Notes under the pieces: generated by a model | Told to the model about the DNA's origin: nothing | Database searches by the model: none | Seen by the model: the letters and a program-made list of their open reading frames with translations, nothing else | Translations under genes and position numbers: made by a program | Origin: Candidatus Yanofskybacteria bacterium RIFCSPLOWO2_01_FULL_49_17 | Lineage (GTDB): Bacteria; Patescibacteriota; Minisyncoccia; 2-02-FULL-40-12; GWA2-44-9 | Reading direction: 5' to 3' | DNA: 53,094 nt | Assembly (NCBI GenBank): GCA_001795695.1 | Contig: MGKO01000004.1 | Coordinates: 1 to 53,094 of the forward strand | Shown here: one piece after another, positions 7,707 through 22,652 of the stretch | Layout: each line of letters begins with the position of its first letter | Position numbering within the stretch: position 1 is the first letter of the stretch

Positions 7707-8327
7707 TTAAGATTTTTTCAGGATCTCTTTCAATCGGGCCAGGTCTTTTTCTATCTTGTCTTTTACGGTCGGGTCTTTGGTTGCATAACTCGGATGAAAA
7801 GTAGGGACCAGCTCGTAACTGCCGAAGTTGAATGTCCGGCCGTGGACGTTATCAAGCGGCTGGCGGAGGCCTACCCCATTTAAGGCAAGATTACCCAAAG
7901 TAACGACCAGTGACGGGTTCAAGCTTTTCAGCTCTTCCTTCAAAAACGCGGCATGGGCCTTGAGCTCCTTAGGCGTCGGCACCTTGCCGTTAGGGTAGTA
8001 TTTGACGAGATTGGTTACGTAGATCTTTTTTTTATCCAAGCCCACGGTTTTGAGGACCTGATGGAATAATTTCTCGGATTGGCCGGCCAGCGGCTTGGCT
8101 TCTTTTTCGCCGTCGGAGTTAAGCATTTCGCCGACAAAAACCACTTTTGCCCCGACTAAACCGCTTCCGAATATCAATTTCTTATCATTGAACTTCTTTT
8201 TCAGGGCTCTGTGGACCCTTTCAAGTTCCTCGGGGGTTGTGGTGCGGGGCGTCTTCATTGGTTCGTTCATCCCAGGGCACCGGCCTTGCGATGGCTGGAG
8301 TGTATCATTAAATCTTATTTTTTGCAA
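7707..8327 (-). CDS. Uracil-DNA glycosylase superfamily protein (family 4/5-like); start uncertain
   Basis: Motifs VVFVGEM..PLAGQSEKLF, IYVTNLVKYYP, TFHPSY. The track start is TTG and overlaps the tRNA promoter; the internal ATG (MNEPMK) is more likely. Confidence 0.6.
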   Translation of the reverse strand: MQKIRFNDTLQPSQGRCPGMNEPMKTPRTTTPEELERVHRALKKKFNDKKLIFGSGLVGAKVVFVGEMLNSDGEKEAKPLAGQSEKLFHQVLKTVGLDKKKIYVTNLVKYYPNGKVPTPKELKAHAAFLKEELKSLNPSLVVTLGNLALNGVGLRQPLDNVHGRTFNFGSYELVPTFHPSYATKDPTVKDKIEKDLARLKEILKKS

Positions 8328-16751: not shown

Positions 16752-16780
16752 TTGACATTGGAGCCATGCTTTGCTATAAT
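16752..16780 (+). promoter_or_regulatory. Consensus sigma70-type promoter of the DGR target gene
   Basis: TTGACA, 17-nt spacer, TATAAT, all exact. Confidence 0.7.
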
Positions 16781-16847: not shown

Positions 16848-17756
16848 ATGGCTCCGATGTCAAAATCAAAAAAGACATTGGCTCCGTCCAGCATCGTGAC
16901 CAGCCGCGACCCGAAGGGTTTGAAGTTCACTTCCATTCCGGCGATGTCTTACGACAAAGCCCGGCTCTCCGAGGAGGAGGCCCAGCGCCTCAACGACACG
17001 CCAGGTCTGGCCGACCTGATTGACGGTTTCATCGCCAAGAACCGGCGGTTGAACCAGTACGCCAATGAGGAAGTTGGTTCTGGATACGGCTATCCCAAGG
17101 GCTTCAAGCCCAAGGATCCCATGTCACAGTCCAACGATCTGCGTCAGCTCATCGGTGGCATCGGCTTCTTTGATCAGGACTACCTGACGCTCGTGCAGAA
17201 CGGCACGGTCGCCCTGCCGGACGGAGCCGAAGGATGGTTCGCCATCCCGCGGTGGCAGAAGATCGCACCGACGTACAACGAAGCGGTGGAGAAGGTTCTG
17301 GCTCTGATTGCTTCCAAGCGCACGTTCAAGAACTGGCGTGAAGGGCAACTCGGTCCGGATCGGTTCCGACAGCATCCGCGGACGGCGCACGCGCTGGACG
17401 TCATCGCCGAACAGCAGAAGGGCGCGGACATTCTCATCATTCCGGCCCAGTTCGGCCAGCGTCACGCCGGCCGCAGCGTCCGTCGGGCTCGTGAGGTCTT
17501 CACTTCACCCGAGTTCGGTCTCGACGCGTTTAGCAACGCCGTGATGTTGCTGACACACCCGGAGCGCCTCATTGCTTGTGAGGATCTCTGGATCGATTGC
17601 GCTGGTGACGAGTACGCGCCTGCTGCCGATGGCCGGTTCAACGAGGCACCGTACTTCGACTTCTACGTCGGCTGTCTGGGGCTGGACGCGCACGTTGTGG
17701 GCAGTGCGCTCGACTTCTGTGGCTCCGCGTCTGGGTTCGTCCCGCAGGCAGTCTGA
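16848..17756 (+). CDS. DGR variable (target) protein; VR forms the C-terminal 42 codons
   Basis: AAAGGAG precedes ATG 16848, with a second ATG at 16857; the track start at 16752 lies inside the promoter. The C-terminus PAADGRFNEAPYFDFYVGCLGLDAHVVGSALDFCGSASGFVP is encoded by the VR. No N-terminal signal peptide or TM is visible. Confidence 0.8.
   Translation: MAPMSKSKKTLAPSSIVTSRDPKGLKFTSIPAMSYDKARLSEEEAQRLNDTPGLADLIDGFIAKNRRLNQYANEEVGSGYGYPKGFKPKDPMSQSNDLRQLIGGIGFFDQDYLTLVQNGTVALPDGAEGWFAIPRWQKIAPTYNEAVEKVLALIASKRTFKNWREGQLGPDRFRQHPRTAHALDVIAEQQKGADILIIPAQFGQRHAGRSVRRAREVFTSPEFGLDAFSNAVMLLTHPERLIACEDLWIDCAGDEYAPAADGRFNEAPYFDFYVGCLGLDAHVVGSALDFCGSASGFVPQAV
17619..17744 (+). other. DGR variable region (VR)
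   Basis: 126 nt aligned without gaps to TR 18135-18260. There are 18 differences, all at TR adenines. The last 24 nt (ggctccgcgtctgggttcgtcccg) are identical, an IMH-like block. Confidence 0.9.
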
Positions 17757-18134: not shown

Positions 18135-18260
18135 CCTGCTGCCGATGGCCAGTTCAACAAGGCACCGTACTTCAACTTCAACGACGACTGTCTGAAGCTG
18201 GACACGAACGATGTGAGCAATGCGAACGACAACTATGGCTCCGCGTCTGGGTTCGTCCCG
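18135..18260 (+). other. DGR template region (TR)
   Basis: Non-coding copy of the VR, rich in AAC/AAG/GAC codons in the VR frame. Contains 30 adenines, 18 of which are substituted in the VR. Confidence 0.9.
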
Positions 18261-18275
18261 AAGTCACTCCTCAAA

Positions 18276-18762: not shown

Positions 18763-19811
18763 ATGAAGATATATTATGATGTTTTTTCTAAAATAGTTTC
18801 CCTAGAGAGCTTATTTTTAGCATGGCAGGAGTTTCGGAAAGGTAAATCGGCAAAGGAAGATGTTCAACAATTTGAGTTCAATCTGGAGGAAAATATTTTC
18901 CAACTTCACGATGAGTTGGCTAACGGCTTGTATCGTCACGGACCATATGAAGGATTTTTCGTTCACGATCCCAAGCGTAGGCATATTCACAAGGCTTTGG
19001 TCCGAGATCGGGTCGTCCATCACGCTATATTTTCGGTTATCAATCCGATATTTGAGGAAACGTTCATTCCAACATCCTTTTCCTGTCGGGTGGGATTTGG
19101 CGCTCATCGAGGAGTGGCAAGATTGCATCAGATGCTTCGTTCGGTGTCCTGTAACGGAACCAGGTCTTGTTTTGCTTTGAAATGCGATATTAAAAAATTC
19201 TTTGACTCGATAGATCATAATGTCCTGCTGGACCTTATTGGCAACCGAATGAAAGATCCCTCGGCGGGAATTTTGGTGAGCGAAGTTATTAATAGTTACG
19301 CCACGAGAGAGAGAGAGAGAGCAGAAACAGCCACCGAAAAACCGGTTTGCCCATCGGTAACCTGACCAGCCAGCTCTTTGGCAATATCTACATGAACGAG
19401 TTTGATCAGTTCGTAAAGCATAAATTGCGAGTTAAGAATTATTGCCGCTACACAGACGATTTTATCATTGTTTCATCAGAAAAAGAATACTTAGAAGAAC
19501 TGATTCCGAGAATAGAAGCGTTTTTAGGAGAACGGTTGCATTTGAAGTTGCACCCTGCCAAAGTAAGTATCCGTAAGATGGGTCAAGGAGTTGATTTCCT
19601 TGGTTATGTACAATTTCTTAATCATAGATTGTTACGTGTTAAAACCAGACGTCGGATATTTAGGAAATTTAACAATCAAATATTAAAGTATCAGCAGGGC
19701 ATTATTTCTCGCGAAAAATTGAATAGTTCCTTGCAATCTTACCTTGGTGTCTTTGGCCATGCCGATACATTCAGCATTGAACAGGAATTGCTCAATTTAT
19801 TGCCCATTTGA
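18763..19811 (+). CDS. DGR reverse transcriptase, split into two frames at a (GA)8 tract
   Basis: ORF 18763-19365 carries the N-terminal RT motifs (..HIHKALVRDRVVHHAI.., FDSIDH). The frame open from 19296 to 19811 carries GLPIGNLTSQLFGNIYMNEFD (the DGR-type [IL]GxxxSQ motif) and YTDDF. Removing one GA unit fuses both into about 348 aa. Confidence 0.85.
19305..19320. repeat. (GA)8 dinucleotide tract at the RT frame junction
   Basis: gagagagagagagaga followed by g. Confidence 0.95.
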
Positions 19812-19841
19812 ATTAAGTTTTTTTTCTGTTAAAATACCCGA

Positions 19842-22385: not shown

Positions 22386-22652
22386 ATGGTAGAAGTCAAA
22401 CGAAAACCAAATGAATCCATCGGCGGTTTATTGCGCCGATTCAACCGCTTCGTCCAACAGAGCGGCGTTTTGCTCAAAGCCAAGCGCTCCAAGTTCCGCG
22501 AAAAGACGATGACCGAGCGCAAGGAGAAGAACGCGGCTATCATGGGTCTGCATCTTTCGGAACTTCGCAAGCGTCTTGAAAAACTCGGCAAATATGATGA
22601 GGAGACATTTGATGAGGAGAAGCGCAAGATGAAACAAGAACTTGGACTATAA
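22386..22652 (+). CDS. rpsU: Ribosomal protein S21
   Basis: VEVKRKPNESIGGLLRRFNRFVQQSGVLLKAKRSKFREK. SD AAAGGAGG lies upstream. Confidence 0.75.
   Translation: MVEVKRKPNESIGGLLRRFNRFVQQSGVLLKAKRSKFREKTMTERKEKNAAIMGLHLSELRKRLEKLGKYDEETFDEEKRKMKQELGL

Follow-up and report, generated by a model that had tools for sequence, protein, structure and literature searches.

[quoted passage not shown]

Results

A DGR with an interrupted reverse transcriptase

The DNA analyzed here, a single stretch of 53,094 nt (the window), contains all components of a diversity-generating retroelement (DGR): a target gene with its variable repeat (VR), a template repeat (TR), an Avd gene and a reverse transcriptase (RT; Table 1). 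The target gene is 299–302 aa long in other assemblies, the mechanically called ORF beginning at 16752, and its product found no match when compared with Pfam. VR and TR fall within a repeat pair of 135 nt (17619–17753 and 18135–18269) that differs at 21 positions, 19 of which are adenines in the TR; the TR has 33 adenines in total, and these 19 are the ones substituted in the VR. Three of the 21 mismatches lie at 17745–17751, just beyond the VR. The final 25 nt of the VR (17720–17744) are identical to the TR and resemble the conserved 3' end of VRs, the IMH, which is the homing-initiation site of DGRs. The Avd protein is present as an identical copy on 19 contigs.

Table 1. Features of the DGR in the window (positions in nt, forward numbering)
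Feature	Position	Strand	Remarks
DGR target (variable-protein) gene	16848..17756	+	VR at its C-terminus
VR	17619..17744	+	3' end of target gene
TR	18135..18260	+	516-nt offset from VR, downstream
Avd accessory protein gene, 116 aa	18304..18654	-	PF22296 bAvd, E = 9e-14
RT N-terminal ORF, motifs 1–3	18763..19365	+	200 aa, stop TGA 19363–19365
RT C-terminal frame: motif 4 GLPIGNLTSQ, motif 5 YTDD, thumb	19296..19811	+	-1 relative to the N-terminal ORF
(GA)8 microsatellite, site of the frame break	19305..19320	+	inside the overlap of the two RT frames

When the two RT frames are fused, the resulting protein matches RVT_1 in Pfam (E = 1e-21), and its closest solved relative is the Bordetella bRT (8ub7; E = 3.7e-43). 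The RT had been taken to be of the DGR type, and its motifs, the RVT_1 and bRT matches, the Avd gene and the TR/VR pair all bear this out. DGR-clade RT motifs, an adenine-specific TR/VR pair and Avd are thus present together, but the RT frame, uninterrupted in a usual DGR, is broken at (GA)8 in every assembly.

The frame break maps to the (GA)8 tract

The N-terminal RT ORF reads through the tract and, by then out of frame, stops 45 nt beyond it; its homology to other RTs ends at the tract. The C-terminal frame is bounded upstream by stops at 19290–19295, remains open to 19811 and contains no ATG or GTG, indeed no start codon, before the motif-4 glycine. These positions agree with the earlier note on this DNA, which had the N-terminal ORF (18763–19365) end at 19365, the frame encoding GLPIGNLTSQ..YTDDF open from 19296, and the two overlap across (GA)8 at 19305–19320. 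With G19321 directly after (GA)8, the alternating run extends to 17 nt, and it is read as (RE)n without stops in all three frames.

Deleting one GA unit joins the frames into a single RT of 348 aa reading ...INSYATRERESRNSHRKTGLPIGNLTSQ..., which reproduces both the length of about 348 aa and the junction sequence that had been anticipated, and adding two units yields 350 aa. The frame is restored, in other words, by (GA)7 or (GA)10, and intact homologues of the RT measure ~349 aa. Junction peptides expected from the full-length RT include ...ATRERESRNSHRK.... In the downstream frame, the residues from the end of the tract onward (RERESRNSHRKTG; RERES..RK.G) resemble those of intact homologues (RERESKPRKG, RERERESKNTPRKG), which places the break in the tract itself. 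A -1 frameshift at the A5 run at 19337–19341 was considered as another site for the break and ruled out, since the post-tract residues already agree with those of homologues and the A5 run itself lacks conservation.

No second lesion was found in the RT: all of its motifs are intact, and so are the TR, the Avd gene and the IMH-like segment. Within the window, (GA)8 is the sole dinucleotide run of at least five units, and the only further simple repeats are two T8 runs.

The tract lies in a predicted disordered loop between motifs 3 and 4

AlphaFold modelled the repaired RT with a mean pLDDT of 91 and a pTM of 0.87, and the sole segment with a pLDDT below 50 comprises residues 182–188 (RERESRN). 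The residues encoded by the tract face a 12-residue gap in the Bordetella bRT (8ub7), that is, they form an insertion relative to bRT, and among intact homologues the loop at this position differs in length by 0–17 residues. The tract is accordingly predicted to encode a disordered surface loop of the RT. Because this loop is disordered in the model and aligned to a gap in bRT, in-frame changes of its length would be harmless, and only the reading frame would matter.

Alignment of the 120 best full-length homologues (55–61% identity) revealed (RE)n of variable length exactly at this place in ~12% of them. A different repeat is found in the same RT loop at L255–L266, loci from other aquifer CPR genomes that carry a G10 or G9 run and in which the RT is again split at that point. 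Several C-terminal RT fragments from this aquifer, whose DNA carries these runs, have 'GGG' in place of 'RERE'.

Homologous tracts recur across CPR bacteria and DPANN archaea, mostly out of frame

The earlier note had called for a comparison of orthologous RTs, and this brought (GA)n to light at the same site in a large set of relatives. Sequence collections were scanned for (GA)≥5 followed, after a gap of 2–32 nt, by the coding pattern of PIGNLTSQ. At least 120 loci matched in species-representative genomes and at least 119 in metagenome contigs, and the viral contigs scanned with the same pattern gave 0 matches. Homologous tracts of pure (GA)n, 10–71 nt long, thus stand just before RT motif 4 in at least 239 loci, with a median length of 20 nt among the loci listed. 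Judged by record title, DPANN archaea account for 32 of the 120 genomic loci listed, and the remainder are mostly CPR/Patescibacteria. A few tract-bearing MAGs are labelled Gammaproteobacteria or Bdellovibrionales.

Two apparent short-tract alleles, L212 and L171, were rejected as such and left out of the counts, since their contigs begin inside the tract and their tract lengths are incomplete, and L215, in which two tract copies are joined by NN, was recognized as a scaffolding artefact. A clade-wide split fraction was not derivable from a search with the C-terminal half, in which all matches listed (at least 120) were short fragments, probably because candidate selection favors similar length.

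Frame states were called by homology, using tblastn with intact RTs divided into an N- and a C-terminal half. Among the genome loci listed, 25 were in frame, 51 belonged to the +1 class and 39 to the -1 class; the corresponding numbers for the metagenome loci listed were 20, 40 and 40. After removal of duplicates, 45 of 206 listed loci were in frame (22%, CI 16–28%), which is below one third (p = 4e-4), these statistics being approximate because the loci are related by descent and the counts come from the matches listed. Loci in the in-frame (ON) state may moreover be under-sampled, since assemblies might break up at the VR where the ON state is active, and such under-assembly of active loci could contribute to the shortage of in-frame copies. 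With the split (OFF) state in the majority among the 206 loci, the (GA)8 locus of the window sits in the commonest state of its clade. Frame state showed no trend with tract length across the 206 non-redundant loci listed and no phylogenetic signal, nearest neighbors sharing a state with a frequency of 0.38 versus 0.35 after permutation (p = 0.23).

The tract is the fastest-changing site of the locus

One GA unit is the sole difference between L067, which is split, and L190, which has an intact ORF of 366 aa (3660 nt, 0 mismatches). The same is true of L272 and L138, which occupy two different OFF registers (2676 nt, 0 mismatches), and of L106 and L127 (4863 nt, 0 mismatches). The RT of the latter two also carries a TAG stop, so that this pair demonstrates mutability and not functional switching. 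L184/L189 and L187/L217 were discarded as clean pairs, their flanks differing somewhere along the full length. More generally, even relatives that are 0–8% apart in amino acids always differ in tract length, with tracts of 35 versus 71 nt in two Wolfebacteria. The 1.39 Mb of flanking sequence contain only 16 other dinucleotide repeats of at least five units, almost every one with exactly five. Together, these comparisons identify the tract as the fastest-changing site of the locus.

A single allele in the aquifer population, with contig ends at the VR and after the tract

We retrieved the locus of the window, by way of its neighboring proteins, from ENA, JGI and Logan assemblies of one aquifer that had been made with several assemblers. 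Every assembly spanning the tract (L001/L280, L002, L003/L268/L270/L282, L004, L006, L008, L009 and L281) has (GA)8, and no tract-length variant of this locus occurs in the consensus assemblies, which represent at least six samples. L267/L279 (sample ERZ28563803) also has (GA)8 and was given less weight because its gene calls disagree with its sequence. At a second locus from the aquifer, one tract length was found across six ENA samples, and a JGI sample differed from it by one unit. The constancy of the tract across samples at both loci (for the second, the six ENA samples) indicates that the consensus states were stable over the time sampled.

These observations also speak to a sequencing or assembly error in the repeat, which the earlier note had listed as an alternative. 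Repeats are prone to miscounting, and two contigs end 9–15 nt past the tract; given, however, that an identical (GA)8 was recovered from at least six independent samples by different assemblers, that the second aquifer locus is equally reproducible in six samples, and that more than 200 loci, drawn from many studies, show this pattern, an error of this kind is scarcely credible.

The VR of this population has strongly diverged from the TR, yet it has one and the same sequence in all consensus assemblies, which are separated from one another by unrelated SNPs. Contig ends are not evenly spread. Seven of 27 lie in or adjoin the VR within a span of 226 nt, for which ~0.85 would be expected; they fall at 17571, 17571 and 17603 on one side and at 17651, 17653, 17653 and 17711 on the other. 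Three further contigs end no more than 55 nt past the tract (19329, 19335 and 19375), and sample ERZ4903137 has breaks both at the VR and after the tract. The clustering of contig ends at the VR and after the tract hints at minority variants at both sites.

Split copies are otherwise intact and under purifying selection

We compared split with in-frame copies among the loci listed. The YxDD motif is retained by 123 of the 124 split loci that have full flanks, and both halves of the RT are covered in split copies to the same extent as in in-frame copies. True extra stops are confined to L106/L127, L164 and L219, i.e. about three loci or ~1.5%; 'stops inside HSPs' had been noted in 23 loci and were dismissed as lesions, since nearly all of them precede the true start codon. 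For pairs of relatives in which both copies are split, the median dN/dS (Nei-Gojobori) is 0.08 for the N-terminal half and 0.11 for the C-terminal half. As the C-terminal half would go untranslated in a dead gene, the value of 0.11 argues that the split genes are alive. A TR/VR pair is recognizable in about two thirds of the loci of at least 4 kb, and ON and OFF loci are equal in this frequency and in the number of adenine mismatches.

Plain inactivation is one explanation to set against these results: the break would be a dead-end slip in a mutation-prone repeat, the DGR would be dying, and the repeat would be a neutral hazard of a tolerant loop. Consistent with such a fate, all assemblies of the window's locus are OFF, their consensus sequences share a single VR, a few relatives have extra stops, and the protein database lacks an intact allele: a search for an intact version of this RT (>61% identical) among 5.8 billion protein clusters came back empty. 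Against it stands the RT itself, in which additional disabling lesions were looked for and not found, next to an intact TR, Avd gene and IMH-like segment. Across relatives, 78% of the listed loci are split, yet dN/dS is ~0.1 and extra stops amount to ~1.5%, so that the split state, the commonest among the 206 listed loci, coexists with strong purifying selection on both halves. A neutral repeat should moreover gain interruptions, whereas pure tracts as long as 71 nt have survived in both CPR bacteria and DPANN archaea, and poly-G is found as another type of repeat at this very site. The plain pseudogene that the earlier note had considered is therefore very unlikely.

Conservation of and selection on both halves would equally be expected if the two ORFs were translated separately and an N-terminal polypeptide (fingers) assembled with a C-terminal one (palm/thumb). 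In 91 of 162 split loci, the window's own among them, the C-terminal frame has no ATG, GTG or TTG before the invariant motif-4 glycine (129 of 162 have no ATG), and separate translation is therefore no general solution. The stop of the N-terminal ORF, furthermore, lies at variable distances among split loci, 3–366 nt past the tract, and 22% of the listed loci are a single ORF. A split enzyme is thus highly improbable.

Sequence after the tract and slippage during expression

The 40 nt that follow the tract have a more stable fold than control windows do (-8.0 versus -4.5 kcal/mol, p = 2e-21), part of this extra stability being due to palindromic motif-4 coding sequence. A GC-rich hairpin (often GCC-UUC-GGC) stands right after the tract in 21% of listed loci versus 3.3% of control windows, and because it is read in different frames across loci, it appears to be conserved as nucleic acid and not as protein. 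At the window's own locus, the GC-rich hairpin is absent after the tract, where only a 4-bp stem can form, and the tract has no conserved slippery heptamer.

Such features raise the question of whether RNA polymerase or the ribosome slips on (GA)n, so that even out-of-frame alleles produce a certain amount of full-length RT. In that case the length of the tract would determine how much RT is made and not an ON or OFF state, and the frame at the DNA level would be nearly neutral. Judging from the sequence, a shift of ±2 nt would re-pair AGA and GAG codons perfectly, and the tract offers no stops in any of the three frames. Bypass at the level of expression would also accommodate the post-tract hairpin and the more stable 3' folding, frame states that are near random in a gene with both halves under purifying selection, and the contig breaks at the VR, which suggest that a population with an OFF consensus undergoes some diversification. 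We nevertheless regard this bypass, the main rival to a switch in the DNA, as possible but doubtful. The frame relation differs between close relatives, unlike in every established programmed frameshift, the post-tract sequence varies among loci, and the palindromic motif-4 codons explain part of the folding excess; the window's own locus has neither hairpin nor conserved heptamer. In-frame alleles, finally, are significantly below one third, which suggests that the frame at the DNA level is not neutral.

Slippage of polymerases at dinucleotide repeats is, as far as we know, not an established phenomenon in prokaryotes. In insect endosymbionts such as Buchnera and Blochmannia, conserved frameshifts at poly(A) tracts are rescued by transcriptional slippage. 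These bacteria likewise combine reduced genomes with repeat-disrupted genes under purifying selection, but their frameshifts are ancient, conserved in register and based on homopolymers, whereas the repeat in the DGR RT is a dinucleotide (or poly-G) and its register is randomized even between near-identical genomes. Classical programmed ribosomal frameshifting, which requires a conserved frame relation, was rejected, as all three registers are common and carry no phylogenetic signal.

Slippage during expression is compatible with switching at the DNA level, and the two are not mutually exclusive. A combination of both, in which the tract acts as a three-position rheostat, with slippage by ±2 nt giving every allele some full-length RT and unit changes in the DNA setting the dose heritably, is a tentative and rather unlikely reading. 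The GC-rich hairpin just downstream would then help slippage in some lineages, expression of the gene would depend little on its frame in the DNA, and the tract would represent a new mode of recoding on a dinucleotide repeat, common to CPR bacteria and DPANN archaea.

Discussion

We consider it probable that slipped-strand changes in the (GA)n tract switch the DGR RT, making it a contingency (phase-variation) locus, and that the copy in the window is OFF. The tract lies within an ORF and changes in its unit number toggle the frame, (GA)7 and (GA)10 restoring proteins of 348–350 aa; apart from the frame break the gene is intact, and purifying selection acts on it even though it is often OFF; and the tract is conserved at one site in at least 239 loci, such repeats being rare in 1.39 Mb of flanks. 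Relatives display the signatures of contingency loci in the form of a pure repeat at the same site, differences in its length, randomized frames and poly-G as an alternative repeat. Length changes in the DNA flip the frame between near-identical genomes in a gene that is kept functional, which argues for a contingency locus. The ON/OFF switch by slipped-strand mispairing put forward in the earlier note is thus supported by what is seen in relatives, namely conservation of the tract, its length changes and random frames, whereas the population of the window offers only (GA)8, and switching within it is something we infer from those relatives.

On the proposed mechanism, GA units gained or lost at replication would bring the catalytic C-terminal half into or out of frame, and a unit change would thereby turn mutagenic retrohoming ON or OFF in a heritable yet reversible manner. 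The (GA)8 allele would correspond to one of two OFF registers, from which the loss of one unit or the gain of two would lead to the ON state, and this state would supply RT activity. Rare ON cells may diversify the variable protein, and descendants slipping back to OFF would stop overwriting a useful variant and could sweep ('mutate, then lock'). If OFF lineages sweep after a good variant has been found, most population consensus sequences would be OFF. The VR in the aquifer, diversified from its TR yet identical in all assemblies, is as expected for a locked OFF state.

Familiar switches of this kind include the CT/GA dinucleotide tracts in outer-membrane protein genes of Helicobacter pylori and the homopolymer or tetranucleotide tracts of Neisseria, Haemophilus and Campylobacter. 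Phase variation by simple-sequence-repeat contingency loci within genes has been reviewed (PMC11868660, PMC3315296). The tract in the DGR RT shares with the classical loci a pure repeat inside an ORF whose unit number toggles the frame, close relatives that differ in tract length alone, and long-term selection that keeps the gene intact with many genomes OFF. It differs from them in that the gated gene is the polymerase of targeted hypermutation and not a surface or modification gene, so that the switch would control evolvability itself. It also differs in its phylogenetic depth, the homologous loop holding the tract throughout a very deep clade that takes in two domains, with CPR bacteria on one side and DPANN archaea on the other, with ~78% of the consensus sequences OFF among the loci listed and with uncultured episymbionts as hosts.

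Phasevarions, which depend on phase-variable DNA methyltransferases (PMC5909438, PMC7383803), likewise place a repeat in an enzyme gene and thereby switch an activity that acts on other loci; their enzyme family is unrelated and their output is an epigenetic regulon, whereas the output of a DGR switch would be sequence diversification of a ligand-binding protein. The DGR of Bordetella phage BPP-1 (bRT-Avd; PDB 8ub7 series) has Avd, the adenine-specific TR/VR and the (I/L)GxxxSQ form of motif 4 in common with the system described here, but its bRT has no insertion at the position of the tract and no repeat. Contingency loci in the genomes of phages T2 and T4 extend bet-hedging by repeats beyond the classical pathogens (bioRxiv 2025, PMC12633550); they involve other genes and hosts and have no link to a retroelement.

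Phase variation through repeats is well known, and so are DGRs; it is the clade-wide repeat gate on a DGR RT that appears to be new. In the searchable literature we found no account that links DGR RTs to repeats, frameshifts or phase variation, although Paul et al. 2017 (Nat Microbiol), reportedly the main survey of CPR/DPANN DGRs, may mention one.

The implications extend beyond the single locus. Annotation is affected first, since surveys that require an intact RT ORF would miss or misclassify about four fifths of the tract-bearing DGRs in CPR/DPANN lineages, and what thousands of MAGs list as 'RT fragments' are probably genes that can be switched. CPR and DPANN episymbionts are particularly rich in DGRs, and no other prokaryotic system of targeted protein hypermutation is known to us. 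If the proposed switch is real, a contingency locus governs a diversity generator, and a heritable, reversible repeat switch in the RT would be the missing layer of DGR control, one that spares useful variants from being overwritten.

Tracts and annotation of the split reverse transcriptase

In further CPR DGR reverse transcriptases (RTs) from the same aquifer as the window, a G homopolymer takes the place of (GA)n at the same loop, the disordered segment between RT motifs 3 and 4, and these RTs are likewise split at the tract. A 'GGG' signature was present in approximately 7 of 120 C-terminal RT fragments among the matches listed. Within the window, two T8 runs are the only simple repeats besides the GA tract. 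NCBI lists the C-terminal fragment (protein P0121) of the window RT (18763-19811) under the name 'hypothetical protein A2941_03070', from Candidatus Yanofskybacteria bacterium RIFCSPLOWO2_01_FUL.... This record places the window in a CPR genome of the Rifle aquifer and shows the split RT to be annotated as an unrelated hypothetical protein.

Homopolymer tracts in the window and in related DGR loci
Feature	Location	Position relative to RT
T8 run	window 19818-19825	7 nt 3' of RT stop codon
T8 run	window 8026-8033	
G10 tract in RT loop	loci L255-L264	~20-25 nt 5' of PIGN codons (within motif 4)
G9 tract in RT loop	loci L265-L266	~20-25 nt 5' of PIGN codons (within motif 4)

Host assignment, multiplicity and heterogeneity of tract-bearing loci

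Several CPR/DPANN-type RTs were located on short contigs of MAGs labelled Gammaproteobacteria or Bdellovibrionales (loci L029, L043, L106, L120, L123, L127, L134, L030 and L096), and these labels are probably binning errors rather than the true hosts. The 1.5-kb scaffold L215, in which 'NN' connects two copies of the tract plus motif 4 (594-778), looks like a scaffolding artefact in which a pair of RT genes has been fused at the GA tract of each. Two GA-tract DGR RTs, both out of frame, were found together on a single 511-kb contig, CAVRXN010000002.1 (L056 and L119), and again within one MAG (L048 and L073).

For the window population, contig ends from several samples are concentrated in or adjoining the variable repeat (VR; 17571-17711) as well as immediately downstream of the GA tract (19329-19375), with contigs from sample ERZ4903137 breaking at both sites; this clustering suggests heterogeneity within samples at the VR and the GA tract. 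Assemblies of this population are told apart by SNPs at 17597, 15688 and 22409-22425, the first of these (T/C) lying 22 nt 5' of the VR, beyond the stretch homologous to the template repeat.

When loci L274 and L138 were compared, the side carrying the accessory gene Avd (1-439 of L274) was just 86% identical (60 mismatches over 439 nt), whereas the remaining DGR was 98% identical, a divergence suggesting that the DGR cassette may have undergone recombination or have a mosaic structure.

A GC-rich hairpin between tract and motif 4

Among the matches listed, a GC-rich hairpin lies in the spacer between tract and motif 4 at 37 of the 178 loci related to that of the window, including L067, L110, L062 and L254, a six-fold enrichment over control windows; no spacer hairpin of this GC-rich type is present in the window's own RT. 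The hairpins, typically GCC-TTC-GGC or GCC-TGC-GGC with stems of 5-10 bp, mostly start 0-8 nt 3' of the tract, and the reading frame through them varies from locus to locus. The element is a candidate stimulator that could promote frameshifting or slippage.
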